From: a virus
Lineage: Duplodnaviria > Heunggongvirae > Uroviricota > Caudoviricetes
IMG/VR virus record: IMGVR_UViG_3300025387_000013
Coordinates: 1 to 46,519 of that record
Strand: one strand, 5' to 3'
DNA length: 46,519 bases
Shown: piece by piece, positions 3,996 through 46,519 of the stretch
Numbering within the stretch: position 1 is the stretch's first letter
Layout: every line of letters starts with the position of its first letter
Program-made: the position numbers and the translations under genes
The notes under the pieces: model-generated
What the model saw: only the letters and a program-made list of their open reading frames with translations
Databases searched by the model: none
What the model was told of the DNA's origin: nothing

Positions 3996-4574
3996 ATGGG
4001 AAGTAAACAAATAAACTTAATTGGTCAAACATTTAACAGATTAACTGTTTTAAAACAAGAATCATCTGTATTATATGGAAAAACCAAAAAAAGAACTTGG
4101 TTATGTAAATGTTCTTGTGGAAAAGAAATAATAATTAACACAGGAGCATTAACTAGTGGAAATACTAAATCTTGTGGATGCTTTCATGATGAATTATCTG
4201 CAGATATTAGTAGAAAGTCTAGATATAAACTTGCAAAGCCAGATTCTGGATATAAGTCTATTATGAACTCTTATAAAGGAAATGCTATAAAAAGAGGATA
4301 TGAGTTTACTTTAACTTTTGATGAGTTCAAAAAGTTAGTATTATCTAACTGTTATTATTGTGGAATAGAGCCTTCTAATGTATATTTTAGAAATTATTAT
4401 GATGTTCCATACAATGGCATAGACAGAATAAATAACAATGTTGGTTATTTACCATCAAATGTAGTTGCATGTTGTAAAATTTGCAATATTGCAAAAAATA
4501 ATAATACATATGATGAATTTATGCAATGGATAGATAGGTTAATTCATCACAAAATAACTAATTCAGTTAGCTAG
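3996..4574 (+). CDS. free-standing His-Me/HNH-type homing endonuclease-like protein
   Basis: IGQTFNRLTV...WLCKCSCG...SGNTKSCGC N-terminal module; CYYCG...NGIDRINNNVGYLPSNVVACCKICN nuclease module. Confidence 0.75.
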   Translation: MGSKQINLIGQTFNRLTVLKQESSVLYGKTKKRTWLCKCSCGKEIIINTGALTSGNTKSCGCFHDELSADISRKSRYKLAKPDSGYKSIMNSYKGNAIKRGYEFTLTFDEFKKLVLSNCYYCGIEPSNVYFRNYYDVPYNGIDRINNNVGYLPSNVVACCKICNIAKNNNTYDEFMQWIDRLIHHKITNSVS

Positions 4575-4588
4575 AATTTTTAAATTCT

Positions 4589-4620
4589 CTTGGTTTATAA
4601 AAGGGGTAGTAGTACATTTG
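4589..4620 (+). promoter_or_regulatory. Bacteroidota housekeeping-sigma promoter upstream of nrdJ
   Basis: CTTG(4589-92)-N20-TACATTTG(4613-20), matching the -33 TTTG / -7 TAnnTTTG consensus with one mismatch. Confidence 0.6.
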
Positions 4621-4636
4621 CTACCCCTTATTTTTT
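4601..4636 (+). terminator. hairpin plus T-tract (intrinsic terminator-like)
   Basis: AAGGGGTAG(4601-09)/CTACCCCTT(4621-29) perfect 9-bp stem followed by ATTTTTT. Confidence 0.65.
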
Positions 4637-9765: not shown

Positions 9766-10425
9766 ATGAAAGAATCAAACAGGGAGAGAAAGTATGATAT
9801 TAAATATAATGTGCATTTAAATGAAGAACAGAAAGAGGGTAAACAGATTATTAGAGAAAATCAAATAGTTGTTATCACTGGTAGAGCTGGATCTGGTAAA
9901 TCATTGGTTTGTGCCCAAACTGCTCTTGATTTTCTATTGAAGAAAGAATGTGATAGAATTTATGTTACTAGAGCAACTATTGAAGTGGGTAATTCATTAG
10001 GTTTTCTTCCTGGAGGATTAGATGAGAAGTTCAATCCCTATCTAGAAGCTTTTATGGAGAATCTAGCCAAGTGTAAGGACAAAGAAACTCTTGATAAGCT
10101 TGTATCAGAATCAAGAATCTTAGCCTATCCTATTCAGTTTATCAGGGGAAAGACTATTGATGATGTTCTTGTTGTAGAGGAAGCTCAGAATCTAAGTAAA
10201 GATCAGATGCTGGCTATTCTCACCAGACTTGGTAAAACAGGAAAGATTATTATCAATGGAGACCTTGAGCAAACAGACATTAGAAATAAGACAGGAGAAG
10301 CTAACGGACTTAGTTATGTTATAGAACTATCTAAGAAGATTGATGAGATACAATGGATTAAATTAAAAGAAAACCACCGTAGTGATATAGTGGGTAAAAT
10401 TTTAGATTATGAGTATGGTAAGTAA
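9766..10425 (+). CDS. phoH: PhoH-like ATPase
   Basis: TGRAGSGKS, IYVTR, LGFLPG, FIRGKT, VEEAQN, LTRLG, NGDLEQTD. Confidence 0.93.
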   Translation: MKESNRERKYDIKYNVHLNEEQKEGKQIIRENQIVVITGRAGSGKSLVCAQTALDFLLKKECDRIYVTRATIEVGNSLGFLPGGLDEKFNPYLEAFMENLAKCKDKETLDKLVSESRILAYPIQFIRGKTIDDVLVVEEAQNLSKDQMLAILTRLGKTGKIIINGDLEQTDIRNKTGEANGLSYVIELSKKIDEIQWIKLKENHRSDIVGKILDYEYGK

Positions 10426-30677: not shown

Positions 30678-33600
30678 CTATCTACTAAACCCTGCTTGAG
30701 ATTGCTGTTGAACACCTATATATTTAGCCAAGTTTGGAAGAGTCATTGGTAAATATGTTTGTATTTGATTAGTTCCTGGAAGCTCTTCCATTAGATATTT
30801 AATGAAATGTATATTTTTCATATCCTCATTACTTTCTCCTTTGATAAGTCCCCAATTATATTTCATAAAATTAGCTAACAGTTTTTCAAAATCTGTAGCT
30901 AATTTGAATGTAGGAAATATTCCTGTACTTAATAATCCACTAATACTAGATGGATCATAGAAATATGTAAGCTCATCTCTAAACTTATCAGCAGCTTTTA
31001 ACATGAACTTATAACTATTTCTAATTTGCACATCCTCATCTTTGTCTGGCATATTGGCTTTAAGACCTAAGAATATAGACAAGAAGGTAAGACTAGCTAA
31101 CATATCAAATATAGAACCTCTTAAGTTTTTATTATAAAGGTCCATATATTCAGCTTCTGTCATTTTAAATTCCTTACCTGTCTGTTTCTCATAGTCTGCT
31201 TTTTTCTTTTCATAATCTTCTCTCATTCTATTAAATCCTGATTCACTTGTAGTGCCTGAGAATAAAGCTTTTAAATTATCAAGGCTATAAAAAGTTCTTT
31301 TAGTCACCTCATTTGCTAAAGTTCTCATTCTACCAAACTCATGTGCATCAGATGCTGAATTATATTTAAGATCACCAAATCTTACATCCACTAATCTAGG
31401 TATCCATCCTTTAAACATGGATATGGAATCTGAGAATAGCTGAGCGTTTAACATTCTTTTTTGAGATTCTGGAAGAGTTCCCAAAGCATCTGAATTTATT
31501 TGTTGAATCTTAGCTCTTATTTTAACAACAGTGTCTGATTTTCTATTTACGCCAGGTATAACTAGTTTATTATCAACCACTTCTGCAACATTTAATACAC
31601 CATGTTCTTTATTAAGTCTTTCCACTTCTTTTTCAAATGCTTTCTTTTTAGCTATTTGATCTGCTTGAGAACCAGCAAACATATTCTCATATTCAGGAAG
31701 TGTTTTTACATATTCTCTAGTGTTATGAAGAACTCCATCTATCACTATTGTATTTTTAATAAAGGCTAAGAAGTTGGTAGTTTGAACAAATTTCTCTGAA
31801 CCAGTCATTAAACCCATCATAAAATGATTAATCTTATCACCATCTAACTTATTTATAGACAGTTTTCTAGCATAATCTCTACTATAATTTTCTGATAGGG
31901 GAAGAAAATAATCAAGAGCTTTAATAAACTTTTCCTTATTCTTAAAGTTCATTCCAAATAACTTACCTGCAACAGTGGCATGTGCATAGCTATAATCTAT
32001 TCTATTAAAATATCGTTCAGAGTTAATTAATGATTGAAAGCTACCACCTAAAAGGTTAGACAGAGGAGATAGAAAACTAAGACCTAATGTTTTACCTCTA
32101 AAATAGTTATTCAAAGAATTGACAGTTCTATTAAGACTTACTTGTCCTTCTGGAAATATGTTTATCCCAAGAGCTTTATTAACATTCTTGCCCCACTCAC
32201 CAAAGCTTCCTAATAATATATCAAAGTTTTTATCAGCTAGATATTTCTGACTGTATAGAGTTACAGTGATCATATTATCAAATAGCTCAGAATTTTTGCT
32301 ATTATCATTATAGTTAATATCAAGTTTACCATTTTTAAATCTTGATCTTCCAAACCATGATGTATTAATAGATCCTTTATTCTTTTCTATATCTGATAAT
32401 AATAAAGCTTGCCCTTCAAGATCTTGCATATATTTAAATCTAATACCTGCAGCATTATACAACATCATGTTCTTAAATAGGTCTTCGCTTACAGCTTCTC
32501 CTTTAATCTCTTTGGTATAATAAATAGGAATTTTATTTATAACTCCTCCATGACGTGGATCATAATTAGCAAATCCAATTTCATCACTATCAACTGCTAT
32601 ACCATTTAAAAGACTTTCAGCTAACTTAAGATCTCCACCAGAAGCTAATACTTCCATAATACCAGCTTTCATCCAAGGAAGAAATGTTCTAGCTGCTTCT
32701 TCTTTACTTAAATATCCTATAGATGAAAAGAAGTTATTTCTCTCAATTATATAGTCATACAGTTTCTTAGCCACTTCATTTTCTGGTTTGCTAAGTTCTT
32801 TAAACTGTACAGACTCCCACTCACTTCTTAAAGGATTTCTTTTAACTTGTGTATATTGTAACCATCCTTGTCCTTTTTCTCCACTATCATATTTTCTATA
32901 CTCAATTTCTAGTTTCTTTTCAAGCTCTTCATCAGACATGTCGGTAGCAGCTGCTCTATTCTTAATTCTATCAACTTCTTTATCTAACTTCTCCTTCAGT
33001 TCAAGCTTTGTTGCTTCTACATCAACATTATTTCTAATCCATTCTATATCACCATCTTCTATTTTGTCTTTTAGTTCTTTATAGAATAGAGAATTATACT
33101 CATCAATTAATTCATTCTTTCCTTTTTTCTTGAGTATATCGAAATAGTTTTGTCTGGTTAATCCTTTATTCTTAGCCCATTCGCCATATTCATGTTGAAG
33201 ATCTAATAGATAATGAGCATGATCTACAGCATCTTGAGCAGTGTGAGTAAGTAATCTATCATATTTTTTATAATATGTTTGCATTCCTGTAGTTTGAATT
33301 AATGCTGTAGAAAGAAATATTCTAGAAAATCCTTTAACTACTTTATCAGGTTTGCTTAAATCATCTATACCTTCTCTTTTAGCTAATATTTTTTCTCCAA
33401 ATTCACGATTAGCTTTTCTAAGATCATCCATTGCAATTCCTGCAGCATCAACTATATCTCTAAGTTTACTCTTAAGATTCTTTTGTTCTTCTGTTAGTTC
33501 TTCTTCTCCTTTAAATAATTCTCTTAATGCTATGTTTAATGTTAAATATGGTGTTAGAGATATCTCATGATTTCTAAGATCGTGAGAAAAGTCAGTCATA

Positions 33601-35663
33601 TCTTTATCTGTATATTCAAAAGGATCTGCATCTTTCCACTCTTCATTATACTTAGCAATAGTTTGTTTAGTATAATATACAAGAGTTTCTGCTTGTTTTA
33701 ATAATGGTTTTATATCTTGTTGCATTTGTAGCTTTCTAATAGCTCTAAACAAATCATTCATCTGTTCAGCTTTATCAGCTTTAGCTTCATATCCTAATGC
33801 AGGTTTATCGGCCAATGCTTTATAATCTGCATTGAATGCTCTTAATAAGTTATCAATTCTTTCACTTCCAGTAGTTTGAGATTCTACACCTACAGGTATT
33901 AAATAGTCTTTAGTAATCTTTTTAATATCAACATCACCTATTTCAATACTTAATAGTTTAGGAAGAATATTTTTAGCTTTACTAAACGCACTATATTCCA
34001 CTCTTACAGGAACCATCATAGTTTGTTCAAATCTTGACGCATTTATACCATATGCTTTTTCTAATATATGTCTGTATATATCCATCTGTTCATTCCAAGC
34101 ACCAATTTTATACCAAGGAATATCTGTATACTTAGCAGTATTTAATCCCATAAACTTCCAGTCAAGAATAGTAATCATACCATTACTTTTAATTGCCATA
34201 AAGTCTATAGTTCCTGCAAGACCTGATTTACCATACTTAGGATTAATAACCATCACCTCACTTAAGAATCTAGTCTTACCACCTTCATTTAAAGATTTAA
34301 TTCTTTCTCTTAAATTATCTTTAAATAAATTATAAGCAGTTCTTCCAGCATCGTCCATTCTAGAAACGTAATTAGAATCATCTCCTTCAATAGCTCTAAC
34401 ATACCCACTTTCATCGGTGAATACATTTTTCATCATATGATGAATGTCAGCATGAAATAATGTTCCTGTCTCTGAGTATACAGAATTTTTAGCATCATCA
34501 AACTCATCTTGTGTACCAGATTTACTATTTCTAAATACATTGTCATAATAATCTGATACAAGATCACTCACCCTAAGTCCTACATTTTCATTGTTATATC
34601 CATAAGGTGTTTTCTTTTCATTATCTGGAGGAGTTATTTTACTCTCTTCTTCTCTAAGTAAATCAAATGTATCTGTTTGAGGATCTCCTGTTTTCTTCTG
34701 ATCATATGTAGTGCCTTCTTCTTCTCTAATATCTTCAGCTGTACCAATATCTTTACCCTTAAGAATGTCCATTTTAAGTTTATCAAACCCACTCTTAGCA
34801 AATAATCCTTTAATGAAGTTGATTATTTTATCCCACCAAGTCTCAACCTTAGCTAAGTTTTCAGGTTTTTCTGTAGAACCTTCCTTCTCATTAATAATCT
34901 TTTCAATTAAAACCTTAGCAATAGCTTCTTCTTTAAGTTTTAATACATTAGGCTTACCATCTATTTGATAATTAGAATCTGTTCCATAGTCTGCAAACAC
35001 CTTATTAAGCATATCATAACCATTGATTTCTTTCAATAGTTGTTTATATAGCTCTGGATTAGTTTGTTTAATTATAGATACAACAAAGTGCATACCCTCT
35101 TCACCAAGAGCTTTAGCTTCTGCACCCTCAACCACTTCTATAAGCTTTTGTGTAACTCTTGCTATACCGCTGCTATTTTGCTTTACACCATTAGTATATA
35201 TATCCTTCACTTGTTTTATATCAACACCAAGTGTGGTCAGTAAATTCTTAACAAGGGCTATAGTTTCTGGAGAAGCTTTAGATGTTTCTGAAGGTACTCC
35301 TGGTTTTTGGAATAAAGTTGGAGGATTTAGATTATTATATTCTTGCTGAGCTAACGGATGTACAACCACTTGAACACTAGCATTGTTTCCTGCTTTTGTA
35401 AGTTTTGATTGTATAATAGATTTTCCAGCAGGAGTTTTATACTTTTCGTTAATTGATTTAATTAAATCTAATTGTTTTGTATGTTGATCAGTTCCTGTTT
35501 TAGAAAATAAATAAGTGGCATTTGGACCCGTTCCATACTCTCTAAATAACTTAGATTCTTTTACAGCTTTCCAAACAGAATTATGGATAGTAGTTAGTCT
35601 ATCAGCTAAATATGGATGTTCTTTTCTATACTCATCCTCAATATATTTTACTTTACAATTCAT
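30678..35663 (-). CDS. large putative virion core/ejection protein with a degenerate zincin-like module and a PD-(D/E)XK (RecB/Cas4-like) nuclease domain
   Basis: EEGMH...KEEAIAK...WWDKIINFIKGLF; GTLFH...LSEVMV...AGTIDF...ILDWK...EQMDIY. Long alpha-helical remainder. Start placed at MNCKVK (35663). Confidence 0.7.
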   Translation of the reverse strand: MNCKVKYIEDEYRKEHPYLADRLTTIHNSVWKAVKESKLFREYGTGPNATYLFSKTGTDQHTKQLDLIKSINEKYKTPAGKSIIQSKLTKAGNNASVQVVVHPLAQQEYNNLNPPTLFQKPGVPSETSKASPETIALVKNLLTTLGVDIKQVKDIYTNGVKQNSSGIARVTQKLIEVVEGAEAKALGEEGMHFVVSIIKQTNPELYKQLLKEINGYDMLNKVFADYGTDSNYQIDGKPNVLKLKEEAIAKVLIEKIINEKEGSTEKPENLAKVETWWDKIINFIKGLFAKSGFDKLKMDILKGKDIGTAEDIREEEGTTYDQKKTGDPQTDTFDLLREEESKITPPDNEKKTPYGYNNENVGLRVSDLVSDYYDNVFRNSKSGTQDEFDDAKNSVYSETGTLFHADIHHMMKNVFTDESGYVRAIEGDDSNYVSRMDDAGRTAYNLFKDNLRERIKSLNEGGKTRFLSEVMVINPKYGKSGLAGTIDFMAIKSNGMITILDWKFMGLNTAKYTDIPWYKIGAWNEQMDIYRHILEKAYGINASRFEQTMMVPVRVEYSAFSKAKNILPKLLSIEIGDVDIKKITKDYLIPVGVESQTTGSERIDNLLRAFNADYKALADKPALGYEAKADKAEQMNDLFRAIRKLQMQQDIKPLLKQAETLVYYTKQTIAKYNEEWKDADPFEYTDKDMTDFSHDLRNHEISLTPYLTLNIALRELFKGEEELTEEQKNLKSKLRDIVDAAGIAMDDLRKANREFGEKILAKREGIDDLSKPDKVVKGFSRIFLSTALIQTTGMQTYYKKYDRLLTHTAQDAVDHAHYLLDLQHEYGEWAKNKGLTRQNYFDILKKKGKNELIDEYNSLFYKELKDKIEDGDIEWIRNNVDVEATKLELKEKLDKEVDRIKNRAAATDMSDEELEKKLEIEYRKYDSGEKGQGWLQYTQVKRNPLRSEWESVQFKELSKPENEVAKKLYDYIIERNNFFSSIGYLSKEEAARTFLPWMKAGIMEVLASGGDLKLAESLLNGIAVDSDEIGFANYDPRHGGVINKIPIYYTKEIKGEAVSEDLFKNMMLYNAAGIRFKYMQDLEGQALLLSDIEKNKGSINTSWFGRSRFKNGKLDINYNDNSKNSELFDNMITVTLYSQKYLADKNFDILLGSFGEWGKNVNKALGINIFPEGQVSLNRTVNSLNNYFRGKTLGLSFLSPLSNLLGGSFQSLINSERYFNRIDYSYAHATVAGKLFGMNFKNKEKFIKALDYFLPLSENYSRDYARKLSINKLDGDKINHFMMGLMTGSEKFVQTTNFLAFIKNTIVIDGVLHNTREYVKTLPEYENMFAGSQADQIAKKKAFEKEVERLNKEHGVLNVAEVVDNKLVIPGVNRKSDTVVKIRAKIQQINSDALGTLPESQKRMLNAQLFSDSISMFKGWIPRLVDVRFGDLKYNSASDAHEFGRMRTLANEVTKRTFYSLDNLKALFSGTTSESGFNRMREDYEKKKADYEKQTGKEFKMTEAEYMDLYNKNLRGSIFDMLASLTFLSIFLGLKANMPDKDEDVQIRNSYKFMLKAADKFRDELTYFYDPSSISGLLSTGIFPTFKLATDFEKLLANFMKYNWGLIKGESNEDMKNIHFIKYLMEELPGTNQIQTYLPMTLPNLAKYIGVQQQSQAGFSR

Positions 35664-35677
35664 AATTATTTTATTTA

Positions 35678-38600
35678 TTATACACAAGGATTAGGATTAT
35701 CAGAACCTTCAGTGTTTGCTTCATTTATATTTAATGGATTTGCTTGTGAAGATACATCTTTTTCTTCAGGTGCAATGGCATTAATTTTACTTTCTACATC
35801 AGCATTTTTAATTCTAATATTACTTGCTGAAGGTAGAACAACTAAGTCTTTAGCACTTCTTGTAATAGCTGTATAATACCATCTAGCAGGATTCCAACTA
35901 GGAGAATTATAGTTTTGGTTTACAAATACTTTATCCCATTGACTTCCTTGAGATTTGTGTGCTGTTACAGAATATCCATATGTAGATATTACAATTGCTG
36001 GAGAAAGCTTAGGTCCTTTCTTAGTATTAATTATATCATGTCCATTATCTAAAGACTCAAACAATGCTCTATCGTGAATACGTATAGATACTAATATTTG
36101 AGAGTGATATAAACTAGGTCTATCTAATCCAGGAAAATGCATCACCTTTCTTTCAATACCATCTTCTCCTACAACATATGCAAAATACATATTGTAGTTT
36201 GATATTTTACCATTAAAATCAAATGTCAATTCATGTTTACTAGGCTCACCCCTAACTTCTACAGCTTTAAATATATCTGAATTAGGAATATCAGATGAAT
36301 TAGCTACAGCAATTAGTGTCTCACCGTCATTCAATATTTTTCTATCTGGTCCAAACTTTGTCATTCTAGCAACATCGTTCATTGTAATTCTCTCATTATT
36401 TGTTGCAACAATCATTATAGAATTTTCATCGTTCTTTATAGATTCTTTAAAATCATTAATAAATTCATTTCTAGATTTACTCACCTTGAAATCAGGCATA
36501 GATTCCATAGGAACATATCCTTTGTTATCCATTCTAGCTAATGTAGCTATTTTTAAAATGTTACTATCTAATCCTTGTCTTTTCACTTCAGTGAGTTGAG
36601 ATTGGGAGTTTAATATCTCAGGAACACCACCTGCAAATAATTTAGAATCATCTCCTACAGGTTCTAGTTGGAAACTATCGCCCATAAATACCACTATATT
36701 ATTTTGTTTAGTGTTAGCAATAAGATCTTTCATTACATCTTTAGCAATCATAGAAGACTCATCTACTAATACAACAGCATTTTTTAAATTGGTTTTAGGT
36801 ATCCATTCTCCTGTAGAAGGATCAGGCTCTCCATATATAGTTTTATGTATTGTAGCAGCATTAACTCCCACTCCTGATTTTCTAAGTTTGTCATTTAACA
36901 CCTTAGCAGCCTTATTTGTAGGAGCAATTACAAATACACTTCTACCATTTTCTTTAGCATAGTTAGCTATGTTCTCAGCAATTGTAGTTTTACCTGTACC
37001 AGCATATCCAGCTAATAGATAATATGCTTGTTCATTCTTATCAATCAAAGCTCCTACTTGATTCAAAGCTTTAATTTGTCCAGCTGTATAGTTGATGGGA
37101 GTTTGTCTAGATTCAAGAATAGTCTTCTTAGGTTGATTAGACACAGCTTCATCATATCCCTCAGGAGATTCAAAGTTTTCTTTAGTAAGTCCATATTCAG
37201 GTTCTATATCAATTTGTTGACCTTGATCTATAACTGATTCAACTATTTGTTGTTTTACCACTGGTAATTCAATAGGAGCAGCAGGAGCAGACTTATATGC
37301 TAATGCACTTCTAATTTGTTCATCTGTAAGCTCTATAGGCACCTTTATAGAACCATTGTTTAATTTAGAAGGATTGAAATTGTTGTAATATTCAGATACA
37401 ACATTTCGATCACCATATACATTGATTAGTTTGTATACATGAAATTTTTCTCCATTTCTATATATAAAAAAGGGTTTACCATCAACATCTTTAACTCTTT
37501 CATAGTTGTACAAATCCTTATGAAAATCACTTCCTTTTGCTTTGTACTGACTCATTTCATACTTACTAATTGCCTGTCCTGTTTGTACATCAACAAATTG
37601 TCCTGTTGGTTTTTTACCTCTTGTGATTTCAACCACTCTAGGGAATTGAACATAATCAGACTTTGTAGCCAAATAGTTAAATTTATCTGATAACGTAAGA
37701 ATGTGTCTACTTGTAGAAACAACATTTAATGATTCTTCTGAAGGAAAGTATTGAAATTTCTTTGGATTGTTTGATTCGTATAAGATAGGTTTTCTATTTA
37801 TTTCATCCCTACTCCATTGAGCAACATTAAACTTAGGTTCTATTTTAGTAAAGACAGTTGGATCTTTAAAGTTGTTTCTTTGGAACCAGCCTTTTGTAAA
37901 GTTCTCAAGATCACCGTCTGCATTTAAAGTAGATATAATAGGAGTGATGTGTTTACTAAAGTCTTCTATAGGAATAATATTACCAAGTGATATTGGAGAT
38001 TTATACATTCCTTGTAAAATAGCCACCTTAACTAAGTTGTTATATAGATCAGTTGTACTAGGATTGTCTCTAAGTTCTCTCATCATTCCTATATAAATGT
38101 TCTCAGCGGCAGCATCTCCTGATATATTTGCTTTTAATTTTACAGACTTTGGACCATCCACCTTAGCATTGTTTGTAGATTCAAGATCTTGTAATATCTG
38201 TATAGTTGGATGTTCTTCTTTAGCTCTTGCAAGTTGAGAAGCAATAGAAGTTTCTGTATCAGCAATTAATGGAAGAATATCTTCATTAATATTAGCTCTA
38301 GTTTGTATAATGAAGTCTAAGAAAGAAAGTTTAATTCTATTTCCAATAGCATTAAAATCATCTCCTTTCATATATTTATTCTGCATGTATGGAGCTAACA
38401 CTTGATTTGTAATAGCTGTAAAAGGCCTGCTCTCAAGTTTTAATATTTCACCAATAGCATTAACACCATTGTCTATAACCTCAGCTTGATTACCTAAGAA
38501 TGTATTATCTAATAATTGTTCAACTCCTCTGAATATATTATTCTCTAATGCTCTTTTAGTTCTGTATTGTTTTTTACTTAGAGCTTCTCCGTTACCAAAT

Positions 38601-41600
38601 TTAGCTGTATCATACGTAAGAGCTTGGTTAGTATCAGATAGATAATCACTCATCTTAGCATATTTCAAAACTTCATCTAATATTAAATGCTGCTCAGCAT
38701 TCTCTATATTAGAAAGTTTTTCTCCTTTTGCATAAAATTTTCTAATATTTTCATCAAACTTATCAACATTAATTGTATCAGCAGCTTCCAGTGCTTCTTC
38801 AGTGGTAGGGAATAAACTTTTAATTAGATTAATATTACCTAAAGAATATAGAGAAGAAGCACCTATATTATCTATATATGTTAAATACTTCTCAACAATT
38901 GGTTGTGCTAATAACATTAGTCCAGTCTCCCCTGTACCAATTCTTTCTAAGAACATTACAGAACTTGGAGCAAGGTTAGACATTATAATTTTAAGGATGT
39001 ATGGATCTTTAGCTACATCCACAATAGCTGTACCATGTCCAGCAAGTCTCTTAGATATAAACTGTTTACCGTCTACAGTTTTTACACCAGAGATAGTAGG
39101 AAGTCCATCTACAGTGTTATGAGGAATCTTAATTGAACCATCTCCTAATATCTTTTTATCAGCACTATCTATGTTTTCAAACATAGCTGGATCAATTACC
39201 ACCTTACCTTTTTGTGCTATAGAATGTGCAGCAATATTAGAAGCTACAATGCCCATCCAATCTTTAGCCATAGCAAACGCATGTCTTGTTTGGGTTAGAT
39301 AGGTGCCATTAATTACCCTATTTTTAATAGTAGATTCATCACGTCCTCTAAGATCATCTAAATCATCAGCTAGTTTAGAAAGACCAGCATCATCAACAGC
39401 AGTTATAAGAGCTTTGAAGTTCTCAGGAAGAGTAATCATCTTTTCTAAATGATCGTAATATTCATTTTCCAAAGAAGCTTGATAATGATCTTTTATAAAC
39501 TCTTCTTTTAATTTAGATTGTATATCATCATCTCCTAGTTTTCCTAGTTGCTGCATTATAGATTCTTCAAACTGAGCAGGGTCGTTAACATCTTTTAGTA
39601 ATACATCTAACAATTGACTATATCTATCTACTAATCCTTTTGGATCATCAAGATCGTATGATAAGATTTGAGAAGCTTCTAATAGCTCAGCTTTCTTAAC
39701 TTTCTTATTTTGAAGAATATCATCAAACACTTTACCAAAGAAATCTTTAGTAGCTTTTTCAGATCCTTGATATCTAACAAGTTTTAAATCATTGTTCTTA
39801 TCTATGTATACATTCTTTAGATACATATTCAACTTATCCACGTCAAAGTCAGATCCTTGTTTTGTAGTGATTTCAGAAGGAACGATGATTGTTTTACCAA
39901 ATTGTTTAGGTAAGAATGATTCAACTCTAATAGCTTCTAATGATGCCATCTCTGTTGCAGGAATACGAAATCCTACAGCTCTAAGAATCTCTTGTCCTTC
40001 AATTGTATTATTTAGATAGTTAAGAACTTTTTCATCAGTGTCAAATCTTTTATTGTTTTTAATCTTTTCACCAAACCAATGAGGAAGTCTTACACCAGTG
40101 TAAGGATCTGATTCAGTGGGGAAGTGGAGAGTATCATCTGTTAATATAACATCACCTTTTCTGTTTTCAGGAAGTTTGTCATATTCAGCTCTACTTAATT
40201 CTTTATATCCCTGATCAGTTTTGATGGCAATCCTTCTTCCTTTAGAAGAATCTTCCCACATGGTTACAGGAGCTTGTATGTAAGAACCACCACTAGTCTT
40301 AGGATGGCCAATGGATTTATCTAACATTGAGTAGATAATATCTTTAATCTTCTTATATGCAAAGGTTGCTTCAAATGGAATAATGAATTCACCATTCTCA
40401 TCTAATGTAAGAGCATCTTTAATATTATCTGATACCTCAGTTCTAAGTGTTTCATAATATAAAGACTCTGCTAATTTTTTTCTATTTACAACATCAAAGT
40501 TTCCTCCATTATCAACAAGACCTAATTTATCTAATAGATTATTATATCCATTATCAACAAGAGCTTTTTTAATATTTACACCACGTTGATATTCTTTTTG
40601 AATAACATCTGCTCTAAGAGCATCTTTTGTAAATGGTACACCGTGTTCAAACAAATCCATACTTACAATCTTAGGAACCTGTACAGCAGCGGTAAGCTTT
40701 CCTCCCTTATCATCATAATCTGTTTCCACTTGAATACCGTAAGCACTCCAAGGCACCTTAATGTTATTATTGAAAGGAGCATCATTAAACTTACCACCAA
40801 CATAAAGTTGATGAACTTCTTCACTACCAAGCTTTCTACCACTCTGAGCGATAACATAATCTACATCCTCTTTCCACATCTTAATGTATAGATCTGCTAG
40901 AGTTGATTTTTCTACCATTTTATAATAAAGAGGCATTTGAGAAGTCTTGTCTAATATAAGATCTATTGTATTACTACCATATTTATTACCCCTTACAATA
41001 GGTTTTGATATCTCTGTAACAAATGGAGGCTCAGGAGTTTTGATTAGTTCTGCATCATATGCTTTTAAATCATCACTAGTATAAGTGTAATCTCCTTTAG
41101 CAGCAAGTTTATTTCTTGTATATGACATGTTCCACTGATGAAATAACTCAGCATCGTCATCCCATTTTCTATTTCTAAGTTTAACTTGTCTGTAAGCATT
41201 ATCTCTAAGAATTGAGGAAGCATCATTCTCAGTAGTTTTACCCATAACTCTACCTACTATATCCATGTCATTTATTGTGACAGTATTCATATAGTCTTTG
41301 AATACATCACTTCCTGGATCACCTGGAGTTTCATCAGTTCTTGGAGCTAACTCAATTCTATTAGACTCACCATATAGCCCAGTTTTATTATATTCTAGAT
41401 TATGGAAGTTATTAAACTCAGGACTATTGAATGTAGTTTCTGCAGGAGAATCAAATGATTTAATACGTTTAGTTTCTTCTAGTACAATCTTACCCTTTTT
41501 CTCTTTAATAGCAAACTGATAAGGATCACCAAATAATGTTTTATGGTATTCAATGTTTGCAATAGTTTTATTTACATCATTGAATAATGTTAGATCGTTA

Positions 41601-44600
41601 AGGTCTTGTTCAGATAGATTAAATTTATCTAATCTGTGTTCTTTTACATTAGCAAACTTATCTTCAAGTGATTTGAAATTGTATGTTGTTTCTGCAATTT
41701 CTTCTTCTGATTTGTTTACACTAATTTGACTATTATCTAATAAGACCTTCTTTAAATTGTTTGCAGAATCTTGTAAATACTTTGTAACATCCTCATTGAT
41801 TTTAGAAATGTTACTATCAATATGTTTTACAATTTCATCTTTAGTAGTGTTTTTAGCAATCAAATCATCAATTGCTTCTAAGTTTTTCTCAGAAAGAATA
41901 TCTTTAAAGAATCTGAGTTCCTTAGCTTTTTTACCAACGTTAGCAAGCTTTTGTCTTTTTTTATAATCTAAAGCAAGAGCTACATCATCTATTAAATATC
42001 CTCTAAATATAGAATGTATATCATCCCAAATTCCTCCTCTAATATCTGTAAATGGAATTTCATTACCAAAATTCATTTGCCATTCAGAAGCACTATCTGC
42101 TGGGTTAATTGCATAAAAATTACCATTCAGGTTTTGATTTATCTCTGTAGAGAATCTTTTACCTAAAGATAATCTTGTTATACTTCTACCATTATCTTTC
42201 AACTCATCAAGATCTCCACTGATAAGTCCCACTCTTAATTCTTGACCTTCAATCTTAACACTCTCTTTATCAAAGAATCTTCCTCCTGGTCTTAATATAA
42301 CACTATTTTCACAGAATGGATCATTTAATTCTGGTCTGTTTTGTTTAAGTTCTTGTAGAGATGCAGATTCATTAAATCTATTAGCAAATAAAGATAGAGC
42401 ATTGTTCTGGCAATTAGTTTGTCTCATCTTACCATCTACACCATTGTATGTACTATCTTGTAATGGATTAGTTGCTTTTACAATAATATCTGCTATTGCT
42501 TTAAATCTACCCTTAACATCTAACGTACCATCTTTAAGACTAACAAGTGCTTTCTTATTCTTTAAATGTTCATATATAAAATTAGTTTCATCACCTATTC
42601 TTTTCTGATCTGTATCAGAAAGTTTAGCAAACGTGTCTGCTGTAATGTCTACACCAAGTTTATTTAAGAAGTTTAACTGATTAACTGTACCATCTATTGA
42701 TGTGTTTGCAAATGCTTTAGGATCAGCATCATAAGTTTTGTTTTCAGATTTTGAATTAAACTTAATAAGAGCTCCCTCTGTTTTAGCAAGGTCTCTCATA
42801 TTTTGTAACCAACCTCTTTGTAATTTAGCAGAAGCATCATATAAATTAGCAGCCCCTACATAAACCTCATTACCGTTTGTGTATTGAGCAAACACTTCTG
42901 GTCTTTGTTTTGTAAAAGTTTGATAGAAATCAATAAACAATCTCCAATTAGCTGGTTTGAAAGTATTTTGATCTATGGTCATATCATTAGGATTACCATT
43001 AAGTTTATCAACCACTCTTACATAGTTAGGATCATTCTTTGCAAGATCTCCTAGCTTTTTTATTGCTAAATTAACATCACTAGTATTAGCTAATGCATTT
43101 AACATTGTTGGATAAGTTCTACTTGTTGGTAGAAGTACAAATCCATCAAAGTTATTTGACTTCTTTCTTTCAGGAAGTCTACCTAGAGTTGATTTATTAG
43201 AAGTGGTAGGAAGAGTTCCTATTAAAAGTTTCATTCCAAAAGAAGATTCTTTTATACCAATGCTAAATGGATCTCTGTCATATTCTCTATTATTAACATT
43301 CTCATTGTTTATATCAGCAAAATCTTCATCATTAAACTTCAATCCAACAATAGTTCGTAAAGAATCTCTTGTTTTTTTAATAAGATCATTCCACGCACTG
43401 TCAGTTATTAGTTGTCTTTTGCCAGATTTGATATAGTCAGCTTCTATTTTATCAAACACCTCATTACCTGCAAGCTTTTTAAAATTGTAGATATCTTCTA
43501 TGTTCTCTCCAAATAATAAACCACTAGCTCTAATAACCATATCTTGTACAGCTTCTTGCACTTGTACAGCTGACATTCCTTCCACCTTACTATATAAAGG
43601 AATTTGTCTAAACTCAGCATCTAGTCTTCTAAGGGCCTCATTGTTAATTCTTGTTTCATATGAACCTCTAGTTTCATCACTCTCTTTAAAAATATACTCA
43701 TGTGCTTTCTCATGAAGAAGTACAAATAGAATAAAGTCATTGAATGATTTAAATACGTCTGCAGGAAGAGGGTCTGAGTTTACAGGATTTGTCCAAGTTT
43801 TATTGTCATACTTCTCTCTAAGAGCATCTTTAACTAGTTCTATTCTTTCACCTTTTTTAATATTTCTAGCAGCTATCTCTCTACCATCTGTATGAAACCC
43901 TATATGATCTAGATATTGTATAACCGTTCCTTCAAACTCAGTTACATCTTTATTTACTAATTCATAAGCTTCTTTAGTTAAACCAGATTTCATCCAATCA
44001 GGAAGAACTGCTTCTTTAAACTTACCTGTATCAATATCTTTAAATAACTTATCTTTCAAACGAGTGTTGGTTCCAAATGATTTAAACCAATCAATTATGC
44101 TTTTAAAGAAATCAAGCATTTTTTGACTAAAGCTCTTAGTAGATATTTTACCTTTTTTAAATTCACCAAAATCATCAGCTATTCTTTCTTCAGCTTGCTT
44201 ATCTGTAGCATCTGCATATTTAATTTGCTTACCAGTGTTTCTTTCTGTAAATGTTCCTCTGTTAGATTTGAACTCTTCTTTAAGAGCTTCTCTCTCACTT
44301 TCAGATAGAAATCCATTGAATATACCATGAAACAATTCATGATACTCTGTACCTCTTGTAGCCATTCTATAAAACTTAGCTACACCATCTTGAAATACAC
44401 CAAATGCTTTTTCATTATCGTGTGTATTAATAACATTTTCTAAAACTTCATATGGTATATTAGGAACATTATCAGCATGCCATTGTTTTAATACAGCAAG
44501 ATCAAACGCACTGATTTGAGACTTATCTGGATCAACACCAACTAATTTATAATCATCATCTCCTCCAGTACCTTTAAACTTATTAGGATTGATTTCTGTT

Positions 44601-46519
44601 TTAACATCAGAAGTTTTAGGAGCTTCAGTTGATTTAGTTAAATCTGTTAATGAAGTTGTTATATTGGTTTTAAATTCACTAAATTTAGAGGATTTAGAAA
44701 GCCAATCACTGTAAGTTATAGAACTTGTCAATAATTCTTTTAATGTGTCTTCGGGTTTACTTACAGCATCTTCTGTTTTTTGATCTTTATACTCACCTGC
44801 AAAAAAAGTTTTATATACACCACTTTCTACTTTTCCATCTTTTATTATAAATTCATAATGATAACTAATTGAATCTGTCTTATCAGTTTGAATAAAAAGA
44901 CGACCAGATTTATCTTTTAAATTATTCATAACTGAAAGTTCTTTTTCAGTTTCAATAACTTTAATAGGTTGCTGTGGGGCTTTCTTAGCCTCTGCTAATT
45001 CTTTTAATTTAGCTACAACCTTTTCTCTTGTTGCTAAGAAATCAGCATCCTTTAATAAAGCTTCTGAATTTATATCACCTTCTGCATCAAGCATAAATCC
45101 CACTTTTCCTATGTTAGGAAACTCTAAAGTGTATAAAGTGTTCTGCTTGTCATACTTAGGTTTATCAAGTTCTCTATCTTTATTTAATTCTTTGATTATG
45201 AGATTGTTGATAAATGTGTTTGCATTATCAATAACCTGTTTGTCTTCTGCAGAAACTTCTTTCTCAACAGGTTTCTCTTCTTTCTTAACAGGAGCTTCTG
45301 TTTTGAATGGAAGATTTGTAGGAACAAGTGTGCTATATCTCTGTTGGAAATTGTTTGGGGCTTCTTCTGTTCTTTTAGCAACACTAGTTTTTAAAGGAAT
45401 ATCAACTTCTGCTCTGTTAGAACCATCTGGATATTTACTAGATAGAAGATAGGTTTGATAGTTATCCCATGTTCTATTTTTTAATTCTCCATTCTCTGTA
45501 TAAAACTCTCTAAACTTGTTGTTGAAATTCTTACCAAGACTATCACTATTTACACTTGTGTAGATGTTGGATAGTTTATCTTTAATATCTTTTTCAAGAT
45601 TAGCTACATCAGAAATATCAAATTGATTATCTCCTATATATAGGTTCATTGTTTTCTCATCAATGGAAATCTGATTAGCTTTTCTATCTTTAGTTCCTGT
45701 TTTATAGAATAATATATTCTGTAAGAAAGATAGTTCTGGAGTCACCTTAGTGATATTGCCCATATTCTCAGACACCTTTGTCAATATCTTGAATATAGTA
45801 TCAATCTGCTTATCATTAAGCTTAGCATTATTTAAAGGCACTAATGTATCACCATATTGAAAAGCTGGTCTTCCTATAGGAATTTTAACAGTTTCTCCAG
45901 CATGCTGTATCTTACCATTCTTAGATATAACAATAAGCCCTTTCTGTGTACTAATTAATTTATTAGCCACCTTCTCATCTGGAGGAAGTAATGTCTCTAT
46001 TACATTGTTTCTTTGTTTACCATCTTCTAGTTCTACAGGATGGCCTTTAGAAACAGTGAAGTTGGAATAAGGAACACTTGCTGTTTTATTTTTGAATAGA
46101 TTTTTCCTAAGGTTTATATATTGTTTCTGAGCAACTGATGCTTCTTCTTTTTGATTATTTCTATATAAAGGTTCATCTACATTAAACTTATTAGGTCTTG
46201 AGAGTTTTGTAGTGGGCATTGTTTGGAAAACTATTTGATTCATGTCAACAGGTTCTCCCACCTTACCAATCTTTTCTCCAGATTTATTTATAAAGTGACC
46301 ATCATTAGTAACCCAAACTTGTGCTAAGAATCCATTATTTAAATCAAACAACTGTTTTTCATCATCTGGAAATAATGGCCCATAAGAAAGTTTAGCAAGT
46401 CCAGATAAGCCTAAAGCTTCTTCATTACCATAGTGTACTAATATAGCTTGAAGGTCTTTTCTATTAGGAAGAAAAGAAGCATTATTTAAAAAGTCTCTAG
46501 CACGTACAATGTGTGGAGC
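35678..46519 (-). CDS. giant virion-type polyprotein (partial, at least 3613 aa): zincin-like domains + crAss/phi14:2-type two-barrel RNA polymerase + C-terminal RecD/Dda-like SF1 helicase
   Basis: No in-frame stop from 46519 to 35681 (the 46352-46519 extension was checked by hand). HELFH 44327-41, HEKAH 43700-14; GFRIP 39959-73 and GSDFDVDK (DFDVD at 39836-50); GYAGTGKTT 36983-37009, DESSM 36749-63, GDSFQL, TAHKSQGS, YTAITR. Confidence 0.85.
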   Translation of the reverse strand, partial: APHIVRARDFLNNASFLPNRKDLQAILVHYGNEEALGLSGLAKLSYGPLFPDDEKQLFDLNNGFLAQVWVTNDGHFINKSGEKIGKVGEPVDMNQIVFQTMPTTKLSRPNKFNVDEPLYRNNQKEEASVAQKQYINLRKNLFKNKTASVPYSNFTVSKGHPVELEDGKQRNNVIETLLPPDEKVANKLISTQKGLIVISKNGKIQHAGETVKIPIGRPAFQYGDTLVPLNNAKLNDKQIDTIFKILTKVSENMGNITKVTPELSFLQNILFYKTGTKDRKANQISIDEKTMNLYIGDNQFDISDVANLEKDIKDKLSNIYTSVNSDSLGKNFNNKFREFYTENGELKNRTWDNYQTYLLSSKYPDGSNRAEVDIPLKTSVAKRTEEAPNNFQQRYSTLVPTNLPFKTEAPVKKEEKPVEKEVSAEDKQVIDNANTFINNLIIKELNKDRELDKPKYDKQNTLYTLEFPNIGKVGFMLDAEGDINSEALLKDADFLATREKVVAKLKELAEAKKAPQQPIKVIETEKELSVMNNLKDKSGRLFIQTDKTDSISYHYEFIIKDGKVESGVYKTFFAGEYKDQKTEDAVSKPEDTLKELLTSSITYSDWLSKSSKFSEFKTNITTSLTDLTKSTEAPKTSDVKTEINPNKFKGTGGDDDYKLVGVDPDKSQISAFDLAVLKQWHADNVPNIPYEVLENVINTHDNEKAFGVFQDGVAKFYRMATRGTEYHELFHGIFNGFLSESEREALKEEFKSNRGTFTERNTGKQIKYADATDKQAEERIADDFGEFKKGKISTKSFSQKMLDFFKSIIDWFKSFGTNTRLKDKLFKDIDTGKFKEAVLPDWMKSGLTKEAYELVNKDVTEFEGTVIQYLDHIGFHTDGREIAARNIKKGERIELVKDALREKYDNKTWTNPVNSDPLPADVFKSFNDFILFVLLHEKAHEYIFKESDETRGSYETRINNEALRRLDAEFRQIPLYSKVEGMSAVQVQEAVQDMVIRASGLLFGENIEDIYNFKKLAGNEVFDKIEADYIKSGKRQLITDSAWNDLIKKTRDSLRTIVGLKFNDEDFADINNENVNNREYDRDPFSIGIKESSFGMKLLIGTLPTTSNKSTLGRLPERKKSNNFDGFVLLPTSRTYPTMLNALANTSDVNLAIKKLGDLAKNDPNYVRVVDKLNGNPNDMTIDQNTFKPANWRLFIDFYQTFTKQRPEVFAQYTNGNEVYVGAANLYDASAKLQRGWLQNMRDLAKTEGALIKFNSKSENKTYDADPKAFANTSIDGTVNQLNFLNKLGVDITADTFAKLSDTDQKRIGDETNFIYEHLKNKKALVSLKDGTLDVKGRFKAIADIIVKATNPLQDSTYNGVDGKMRQTNCQNNALSLFANRFNESASLQELKQNRPELNDPFCENSVILRPGGRFFDKESVKIEGQELRVGLISGDLDELKDNGRSITRLSLGKRFSTEINQNLNGNFYAINPADSASEWQMNFGNEIPFTDIRGGIWDDIHSIFRGYLIDDVALALDYKKRQKLANVGKKAKELRFFKDILSEKNLEAIDDLIAKNTTKDEIVKHIDSNISKINEDVTKYLQDSANNLKKVLLDNSQISVNKSEEEIAETTYNFKSLEDKFANVKEHRLDKFNLSEQDLNDLTLFNDVNKTIANIEYHKTLFGDPYQFAIKEKKGKIVLEETKRIKSFDSPAETTFNSPEFNNFHNLEYNKTGLYGESNRIELAPRTDETPGDPGSDVFKDYMNTVTINDMDIVGRVMGKTTENDASSILRDNAYRQVKLRNRKWDDDAELFHQWNMSYTRNKLAAKGDYTYTSDDLKAYDAELIKTPEPPFVTEISKPIVRGNKYGSNTIDLILDKTSQMPLYYKMVEKSTLADLYIKMWKEDVDYVIAQSGRKLGSEEVHQLYVGGKFNDAPFNNNIKVPWSAYGIQVETDYDDKGGKLTAAVQVPKIVSMDLFEHGVPFTKDALRADVIQKEYQRGVNIKKALVDNGYNNLLDKLGLVDNGGNFDVVNRKKLAESLYYETLRTEVSDNIKDALTLDENGEFIIPFEATFAYKKIKDIIYSMLDKSIGHPKTSGGSYIQAPVTMWEDSSKGRRIAIKTDQGYKELSRAEYDKLPENRKGDVILTDDTLHFPTESDPYTGVRLPHWFGEKIKNNKRFDTDEKVLNYLNNTIEGQEILRAVGFRIPATEMASLEAIRVESFLPKQFGKTIIVPSEITTKQGSDFDVDKLNMYLKNVYIDKNNDLKLVRYQGSEKATKDFFGKVFDDILQNKKVKKAELLEASQILSYDLDDPKGLVDRYSQLLDVLLKDVNDPAQFEESIMQQLGKLGDDDIQSKLKEEFIKDHYQASLENEYYDHLEKMITLPENFKALITAVDDAGLSKLADDLDDLRGRDESTIKNRVINGTYLTQTRHAFAMAKDWMGIVASNIAAHSIAQKGKVVIDPAMFENIDSADKKILGDGSIKIPHNTVDGLPTISGVKTVDGKQFISKRLAGHGTAIVDVAKDPYILKIIMSNLAPSSVMFLERIGTGETGLMLLAQPIVEKYLTYIDNIGASSLYSLGNINLIKSLFPTTEEALEAADTINVDKFDENIRKFYAKGEKLSNIENAEQHLILDEVLKYAKMSDYLSDTNQALTYDTAKFGNGEALSKKQYRTKRALENNIFRGVEQLLDNTFLGNQAEVIDNGVNAIGEILKLESRPFTAITNQVLAPYMQNKYMKGDDFNAIGNRIKLSFLDFIIQTRANINEDILPLIADTETSIASQLARAKEEHPTIQILQDLESTNNAKVDGPKSVKLKANISGDAAAENIYIGMMRELRDNPSTTDLYNNLVKVAILQGMYKSPISLGNIIPIEDFSKHITPIISTLNADGDLENFTKGWFQRNNFKDPTVFTKIEPKFNVAQWSRDEINRKPILYESNNPKKFQYFPSEESLNVVSTSRHILTLSDKFNYLATKSDYVQFPRVVEITRGKKPTGQFVDVQTGQAISKYEMSQYKAKGSDFHKDLYNYERVKDVDGKPFFIYRNGEKFHVYKLINVYGDRNVVSEYYNNFNPSKLNNGSIKVPIELTDEQIRSALAYKSAPAAPIELPVVKQQIVESVIDQGQQIDIEPEYGLTKENFESPEGYDEAVSNQPKKTILESRQTPINYTAGQIKALNQVGALIDKNEQAYYLLAGYAGTGKTTIAENIANYAKENGRSVFVIAPTNKAAKVLNDKLRKSGVGVNAATIHKTIYGEPDPSTGEWIPKTNLKNAVVLVDESSMIAKDVMKDLIANTKQNNIVVFMGDSFQLEPVGDDSKLFAGGVPEILNSQSQLTEVKRQGLDSNILKIATLARMDNKGYVPMESMPDFKVSKSRNEFINDFKESIKNDENSIMIVATNNERITMNDVARMTKFGPDRKILNDGETLIAVANSSDIPNSDIFKAVEVRGEPSKHELTFDFNGKISNYNMYFAYVVGEDGIERKVMHFPGLDRPSLYHSQILVSIRIHDRALFESLDNGHDIINTKKGPKLSPAIVISTYGYSVTAHKSQGSQWDKVFVNQNYNSPSWNPARWYYTAITRSAKDLVVLPSASNIRIKNADVESKINAIAPEEKDVSSQANPLNINEANTEGSDNPNPCV

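Follow-up and report, generated by a model that had tools for sequence, protein, structure and literature searches.

A crAss-like phage polyprotein that joins a gp66-type RNA polymerase to a Dda/RecD-like SF1B helicase, apparently as an optional cassette

Few known viruses are as abundant as the crAss-like phages. Packaging, ejection and early transcription by an RNA polymerase of the gp66 type are known for only two of them, phi14:2 and crAss001. In vitro, gp66 of phi14:2 transcribes single-stranded DNA (ssDNA) but is nearly inactive on double-stranded DNA (dsDNA), and QDE-1, a fold relative of gp66, needs the QDE-3 helicase and RPA for DNA templates; within its genome, gp66 belongs to a block with the neighbouring gp65, which is zincin-like, and gp67, and in some phages these are fused into a "huge polyprotein" (Drobysheva et al., 10.1101/2020.03.07.982082). 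Yutin et al. (2021) noted "several large, multidomain proteins" and depicted domains of the transcription block in their Figure 3, and cargo proteins associated with the RNA polymerase were found in crAss001 virions (crAss001 structure paper). A further described class of comparable proteins is that of the polyvalent proteins, very large products of late genes in which unrelated enzymes are combined, frequently along with a zincin-like peptidase; in one example, an N4-like virion RNA polymerase shares its chain with such a peptidase, ART and lysozyme (Iyer, Burroughs, Anand, de Souza, Aravind 2017, PMC5512222). An injected polymerase that transcribes ssDNA but not dsDNA in vitro poses a puzzle, for which a fused helicase is an obvious candidate helper. 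Here we describe a polyprotein gene from a virus of the Caudoviricetes (IMG/VR record IMGVR_UViG_3300025387_000013) in which a polymerase of this type and a Dda/RecD-like helicase of superfamily 1B (SF1B) are encoded in one open reading frame (ORF).

The window, by which we mean the whole stretch of DNA that was analysed, comprises the first 46,519 bases of the 116,114-nt record. The polyprotein ORF (protein label P0004) occupies genome positions 35678-49720 on the minus strand, has an ATG start and encodes 4,680 amino acids (aa), the first 1,067 codons and thus the ORF start lying past the window end. From 35678 to the end of the window the frame is free of stops, and an open frame of 14 kb cannot have arisen by chance in DNA of 32% G+C. 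A first-pass annotation had placed a polymerase-helicase fusion at 35678-42500, with all its motifs in one stop-free frame; the motifs do share such a frame, on the minus strand, and the end at 35678 is right, whereas the ORF start is outside both this interval and the window and is reached only at genome position 49720. The parts of the polyprotein on which the following rests are listed here.

35678-46519, minus strand: part of the polyprotein gene inside the window, residues 1068-4680 and the stop codon
38528-41530, minus strand: predicted gp66-type virion RNA polymerase core, residues 2731-3731
37346-38527, minus strand: region after the core, residues 3732-4125, kept among relatives and without a match to solved structures
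37136-37345, minus strand: linker before the helicase, residues 4126-4195, not conserved
35801-37135, minus strand: predicted SF1B Dda/RecD-like helicase cassette, residues 4196-4640 (about)
36983-37009, minus strand: Walker A motif GYAGTGKTT of the helicase, residues 4238-4246
35678-35800, minus strand: variable C-terminal tail, residues 4641-4680 and the stop codon, ending in NPNPCV

Pfam and PHROGs gave no match across the first 4,100 residues of the polyprotein, and the polymerase was recognized through its catalytic loop and through comparison with a solved structure. The catalytic motif DFDVD (39836-39850, residues 3291-3295) is part of the sequence GSDFDVDKL, which holds D3291, D3293 and D3295, and an R-I-P motif is found at 39959-39967 (residues 3252-3254). 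A tblastn search with the DFDVD region found RNA polymerase genes in 90 records of crAss-like phages. A profile built from 88 sequences homologous to residues 2731-3731 matched 6VR4_A, the crystal structure entry of phi14:2 gp66, in the PDB (E=1.2e-117). The match extends over residues 863-1826 of that chain and brings the two DFDxD loops into register; in the 88-sequence alignment D3293 and D3295 are invariant and D3291 is nearly so. An AlphaFold (AF2) model of the same residues had a predicted local distance difference test score (pLDDT) of 88 and a predicted TM score (pTM) of 0.88. When this model was used for a Foldseek search, the top match was again 6VR4_A (E=6e-26, query TM score [TMq] 0.62), followed by QDE-1 of Neurospora as the next-best match and plant RDR2, and then by multisubunit polymerases. 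By these tests the core is a two-barrel RNA polymerase of the gp66 virion type, which agrees with the crAss-type polymerase read from the motifs in the first-pass annotation; the possibility raised there that the DFDVD region does not fold as double-psi beta-barrels was not borne out. The homology with gp66 of phi14:2 covers approximately 1,000 residues of the core, the DFDxD loop being aligned, and in both phages the gene belongs to a group of giant genes inside the structural operon. Profiles made from the sequence on either side of the core found no matches in the PDB, and no similarity to the rest of 6VR4 was detectable in these regions. The two proteins also differ in that gp66 of phi14:2 is without a helicase, whereas the polymerase described here is trailed by a 445-residue SF1B helicase.

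For the helicase segment, Pfam reported AAA_30 (1.2e-26; 94 bits, with a cut-off of 27), AAA_19 (74.5 bits) and UvrD_C_2 (6.7e-11; 42 bits), each above the threshold of its model, and the segment matched PHROG 325, "Dda-like helicase" (1.7e-66), as well as RecD2 (3E1S), Dda (3UPU) and two newer SF1B structures among the PDB sequences. The full motif set Q, I, Ia, II, III, IV, V and VI is present, and when 119 giant proteins were aligned, the conservation of every motif was 90% or higher. In addition to Walker A, which follows DFDVD by 947 residues (estimated as about 950 codons in the first-pass annotation), the segment contains Q4215 of the Q-motif, APTNKAA (residues 4266-4272), DESSM (4320-4324) and GDSFQL (4347-4352) and, toward its C-terminal end, TAHKSQGSQW (4586-4595) and YTAITR (4616-4621). 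Residues 4196-4640 therefore form a complete Dda/RecD-type SF1B helicase, predicted to be catalytically intact, and the earlier description of a full C-terminal RecD/Dda-like helicase stands. T4 Dda and Deinococcus RecD2 (SF1B, 5'-3'; PDB 3UPU and 3E1S) share the motif set and the family assignments with this helicase; these proteins are free-standing and about 440-740 aa long, whereas the helicase described here is embedded in a 4,680-aa chain. Across 56 full-length relatives it is the best-conserved segment of the polyprotein, with a median identity of 58% versus 43% for the core and 49% for the zincin-like region, and it is flanked by a 70-residue linker and a 40-residue tail that are not conserved. 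It is the sole SF1 helicase of the genome. A 219-aa P-loop protein encoded elsewhere in the window (9766-10425, plus strand) matches the N-terminal half of AAA_30 only and is not a helicase.

The fusion of polymerase and helicase is genuine and recurrent. With a search that counted only proteins of a total length comparable to that of the polyprotein, the helicase was found to be common to 196 protein clusters of 2.6-6.2 thousand amino acids from JGI, ENA, NCBI and Logan assemblies, many of them on contigs of 100-117 kb, and three clusters are 97-100% identical to the query across the helicase. Among the 119 giant proteins analysed, the DFDxD motif is located upstream of the helicase in 81 and downstream of it in 9, and 29 have no strict motif. 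An assembly chimera or a sequencing artefact joining two genes, the former of which the first-pass annotation had considered, is excluded for practical purposes and is given next to no probability here, because independent assemblies carry the same architecture, in dozens of contigs of differing source and down to 30% identity. One relative, P0130, seemed to favour this explanation by having a separate 495-aa helicase gene (59% identity), but its apparent separation is due to a scaffold gap of Ns in the linker and not to a split gene.

One instance of the fusion can be found in a named phage. The gp14 protein of cr118_1 (YP_010110531, 4,946 aa; Besingivirus coli, Suoliviridae), which carries the labels "DNA helicase" and "exonuclease V" in GenBank/RefSeq, shows the same order as the query, with a HEAFH (HExxH) region, a polymerase with GSDFDIDKL, a C-terminal Dda-like helicase and a cysteine near the end. 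Its identity to the query is only about 25%, and its helicase is likewise the sole SF1 helicase of its genome. The corresponding protein of the sister phage cr1_1, gp076 (4,551 aa), is without a helicase. The first-pass annotation had not known the fusion as a described architecture. With respect to the literature this holds, as no paper text describing a polymerase-helicase fusion, cr118_1 gp14 included, was found among the searchable papers, figures aside; with respect to the databases it does not, as the fusion was already in GenBank, undiscussed, in the form of cr118_1 gp14. More specifically, a helicase in the polymerase protein is unmentioned in the Drobysheva preprint, the text and supplements of Yutin 2021, the Crassvirales review, the epsilon/zeta papers and the crAss001 structure paper, although a figure may show it.

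The distribution of the helicase speaks for an optional and not for a constant partner of the polymerase. When the polymerase core was searched for, with the same restriction on length, at least 643 giant proteins were found. C-terminal helicases do occur among these crAss-like polymerases, but helicase domains are present in only about 15 of the 120 closest polymerase relatives (46-100% identity); the other 105 or so (46-67% identity) lack them although the proteins are complete. The Walker A motif is absent from all 106 newly seen close relatives, and each of these helicase-less proteins (106/106) has a cysteine within its last eight residues. The tails are nearly identical with or without a helicase, reading ADNPNPCGQ in a helicase-less protein and SDNPNPCV in the query. 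Since the helicase-less relatives all end in the same kind of cysteine tail, they are complete proteins, and since this tail is shared, the helicase appears to be a cassette that was inserted ahead of a conserved end. We also surveyed 29 near-complete polymerase-bearing IMG/VR genomes, 25 of which are rated at least 90% complete; this set may be biased in that it may omit the nearest kin of the query, which do carry the helicase. A fused helicase was present in one of the 29, within a 5,060-aa ORF, and no homologous helicase, fused or free, was found in the other 28, which rules out that a free helicase compensates in the helicase-less relatives. Five of these 28 genomes hold only a small P-loop protein of 217-273 aa that resembles the product of window ORF 9766-10425.

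The site at which the helicase is attached also accepts unrelated enzyme domains. In five relatives (P0010, P0020, P0041, P0042 and P0070), a NADAR domain, an AlkB-like 2OG-Fe(II) oxygenase or DUF7831 can lie between polymerase and helicase, and an ART-PolyVal domain can come after the helicase. Precomputed Pfam lists of other relatives also contain RNase H, a CCA-adding/HD pair and a P-loop kinase-like domain. With most close relatives lacking it, the helicase looks like a self-contained, optional add-on and not like an obligatory partner of the polymerase.

Phylogenetic analysis placed the nearest free-standing helicases (44-50% identity) in a small clade that is sister to the clade of giant-protein helicases to which the query belongs (Shimodaira-Hasegawa-like approximate likelihood ratio test [SH-aLRT] 95), and one of these free-standing relatives is encoded between a DEAD-box helicase, DNA polymerase A and DnaB on an 83-kb phage contig. 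The cr118_1 helicase clusters (support 99) with SF1 helicases that gut crAss-like phages encode as stand-alone proteins, Carjivirus communis gp14 being one; their genes adjoin uracil-DNA glycosylase. Because it groups with these stand-alone proteins and not with the query's helicase, the cr118_1 fusion seems to have arisen separately. Approximately unbiased (AU) tests, in which the groups were named after the first tree and long branches are involved, rejected the grouping of all fused helicases in one clade (p=1.6e-7), as well as a clade of the query group plus cr118_1 (p=0.002). On this evidence, helicases of replication modules were captured by the polymerase chain at least twice independently.

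With several unrelated enzymatic domains in one late-gene polypeptide, namely, polymerase and helicase, to which relatives add NADAR, AlkB-like, DUF7831 and ART-PolyVal domains, the protein has the architecture of a polyvalent protein, and it has a HExxH region. It departs from the described examples in both of its enzymes. The N4-like polymerase of the polyvalent class is a T7-like single-subunit enzyme, whereas the query polymerase is of the two-barrel gp66 type, and the helicases reported for that class are SWI2/SNF2 proteins paired with methylases or, rarely, UvrD-like proteins, none being a Dda/RecD-like SF1B helicase. The combination of a gp66-type polymerase and an SF1B helicase is absent from the list of Iyer et al. 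2017 and is present, but unremarked, in public genomes. The parallel to QDE-1 and QDE-3 is a functional analogy only, as QDE-3 is a protein of its own and belongs to the RecQ helicases (SF2), whereas the helicase described here belongs to SF1B and is fused.

Two further segments of the chain, a zincin-like region and the very C terminus, bear on how the protein may be processed and delivered, and the positions of the former are as follows.

43961-44530, minus strand: zincin-like region, residues 1731-1920
44327-44341, minus strand: HELFH motif, residues 1794-1798

In 28 relatives H1794 and E1795 of this region are invariant, E1845 is kept in 27 and D1849 in all 28. At position 1798, 7 of them have H and 21 have E, which gives HExxE for HExxH. 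The peptidase of most family members may be modified or may have lost its activity. The region aligns with the HEAFH region of cr118_1 gp14; it had no Pfam match and gave a poor AF2 model (pLDDT 63) and no Foldseek match that would support a zincin fold. Compared with the consensus of the relatives, the query has an insertion of approximately 130 residues at about 43590-44005 (residues ~1905-2045), which holds a second HExxH (LLHEKAHEY, around residue 2008) and has no family match.

The cysteine at the end of the chain stands out against a cysteine content of 0.04% in the giant polymerase polyproteins; the query has 3 in 4,680 residues, including Cys4679, encoded at 35684-35686. A cysteine within the last eight residues was found in 100 of the 120 proteins of a first set, in addition to the 106 helicase-less proteins mentioned above, which formed the second, and it is often the last residue, helicase or not. 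It is a possibility that this terminal cysteine acts as a redox-sensitive tether or a packaging tag. Found at nearly every C terminus in proteins that otherwise contain hardly any cysteine, this residue offers a separate, so far unstudied clue to the way in which the cargo is retained or set free.

What is the helicase for? We consider it probable that the protein is a giant cargo polyprotein of the polyvalent type with an optional accessory helicase that acts on the entering phage DNA. A single chain joins a long N-terminal part, the zincin-like motif region, a gp66-type RNA polymerase that would transcribe early genes and a Dda/RecD-type helicase, and, given the homology to the phi14:2 and crAss001 cargo and the gene position, this chain would be packed into the particle and ejected with the DNA. 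As part of the cargo, the helicase would arrive ready-made at time zero and could act on the incoming phage DNA, where it would generate single-stranded regions and remove bound proteins, to the advantage of the polymerase, with its preference for ssDNA, and of the repair-type domains that accompany it. It is conceivable that it improves early infection in some lineages, while the polymerase would not need it. Several points weigh against this proposal. The presence in the virion, or the ejection, of the polyprotein and of its helicase end is deduced from homology and gene position. The chain may or may not be cut, as the zincin-like region gave no structural match and HExxE is the form found in most relatives. 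For loading, an SF1B helicase requires a 5' single-stranded tail, the origin of which on an entering duplex is unexplained. A specific role on entering DNA is suggested by analogy only. Lastly, the cargo partly unfolds for its passage through the tail (crAss001 structure paper), and refolding of the helicase after ejection is assumed.

A stronger version, in which helicase and injected polymerase form, in the helicase-bearing lineages, a single-chain machine for transcription and unwinding that starts on duplex DNA without host factors, is doubtful; if true, it would be a natural fusion of a DNA-dependent RNA polymerase with an SF1B helicase and would offer a route to how gp66-type polymerases find their template in vivo. 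The first-pass annotation had suggested that the helicase may unwind template for the polymerase, help to pull DNA into the cell or clear roadblocks. It is unlikely that the coupling is obligate, with the helicase as the polymerase's own unwinding motor or as a DNA puller and the two as one machine. The near inactivity of gp66 on dsDNA and the cooperation of QDE-1 with a helicase would be accounted for by such coupling, and so would the at least two independent joinings to the C-terminal end of polymerase-bearing chains, the higher conservation of the helicase than of the polymerase core and its being the sole SF1 helicase both here and in cr118_1. However, the same polymerase evidently works without such a helicase in most relatives (about 105 of 120, and 28 of 29 genomes), and obligate coupling is hence unsupported; moreover, the helicase precedes the polymerase in the 9 giant proteins noted above, and another 29 are without a strict DFDxD motif. 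The linker is unconserved, varies in length and takes domain insertions, which argues against a fixed geometry.

Quite unlikely, in our estimate, is an injected effector apart from transcription, for which the polymerase chain would be only a vehicle, either in counter-defence, for instance by stripping restriction or Cas proteins from the DNA or feeding single strands to the repair domains, or in jump-starting replication or recombination. The company of NADAR, AlkB-like and ART-PolyVal domains, which counter-defence proteins of the polyvalent kind typically have, is consistent with this idea, as are the location of the nearest free relatives in phage replication modules, the gut crAss-like relative that stands alone beside uracil-DNA glycosylase and a patchy distribution that suits an arms-race accessory. 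On the other hand, no defence system or target was identified, and the recurrent choice of a polymerase-bearing chain would be unexplained, though the chain may simply be permissive. This idea also overlaps largely with the accessory helicase proposed above and differs from it only by denying any help to the polymerase. A helicase that is not delivered at all, but is cut from the chain in the producing cell and has the usual late function of a helicase in replication or recombination, its fusion serving co-expression only, is very improbable. Its status as the genome's sole SF1 helicase, the presence of the zincin-like motif region and its descent from replication-module helicases would fit, but late expression would be too late for early replication, and the cysteine tail lies beyond the helicase or, in helicase-less proteins, directly after the polymerase region, which suggests that the helicase stays between parts that belong together.

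For the template puzzle, it follows that a helicase cannot be the general answer, since most relatives are without one. Natural pairs with and without the cassette represent a ready-made experiment, and the C-terminal end of the cargo protein emerges as a slot for swapping early-acting enzymes (helicase, NADAR, AlkB-like and ART). New here are the finding that the helicase is the best-conserved segment, the cassette position before the cysteine tail, the at least two independent fusions, the rarity of the helicase among relatives and the alternative domains at the site.

The polyprotein gene is part of a minus-strand block that also includes the genes for TerL, the portal and the major capsid protein and five more genes of 920-1,890 codons. 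The best GenBank matches of TerL are Leptolyngbya phage Lbo-JY46 (40%) and the Cellulophaga phages phi4:1 and phi17:2 (34%), followed by gut crAss-like phages, and on account of these matches the source is taken to be an environmental, distant crAss-like phage. Lbo-JY46 was considered as a cultured model for the polyprotein gene and was ruled out, as neither the helicase nor the polymerase profile found a match in it. The gene that follows in the block is given below.

30678-35687, minus strand: next gene in the block, encoding a 1,669-aa cargo-type protein with RecB-like PD-(D/E)XK motifs

This protein has the RecB/Cas4-like motif set GTLFH408, AGTIDF491, ILDWK507 and QMDIY534 and a weak match to DUF2800 (E=0.009), and a PDB sequence search with it gave no match. 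On a related contig, the gene at the neighbouring position (49% identity) has retained the PD-(D/E)XK motifs, and because the motifs are conserved, a nuclease would appear to travel beside the helicase in the cargo block. Past the window, the same block contains another giant gene (genome 55731-59162, minus strand), the 1,143-aa product of which has an N-terminal histidine phosphatase domain (His_Phos_1, 7.6e-21).

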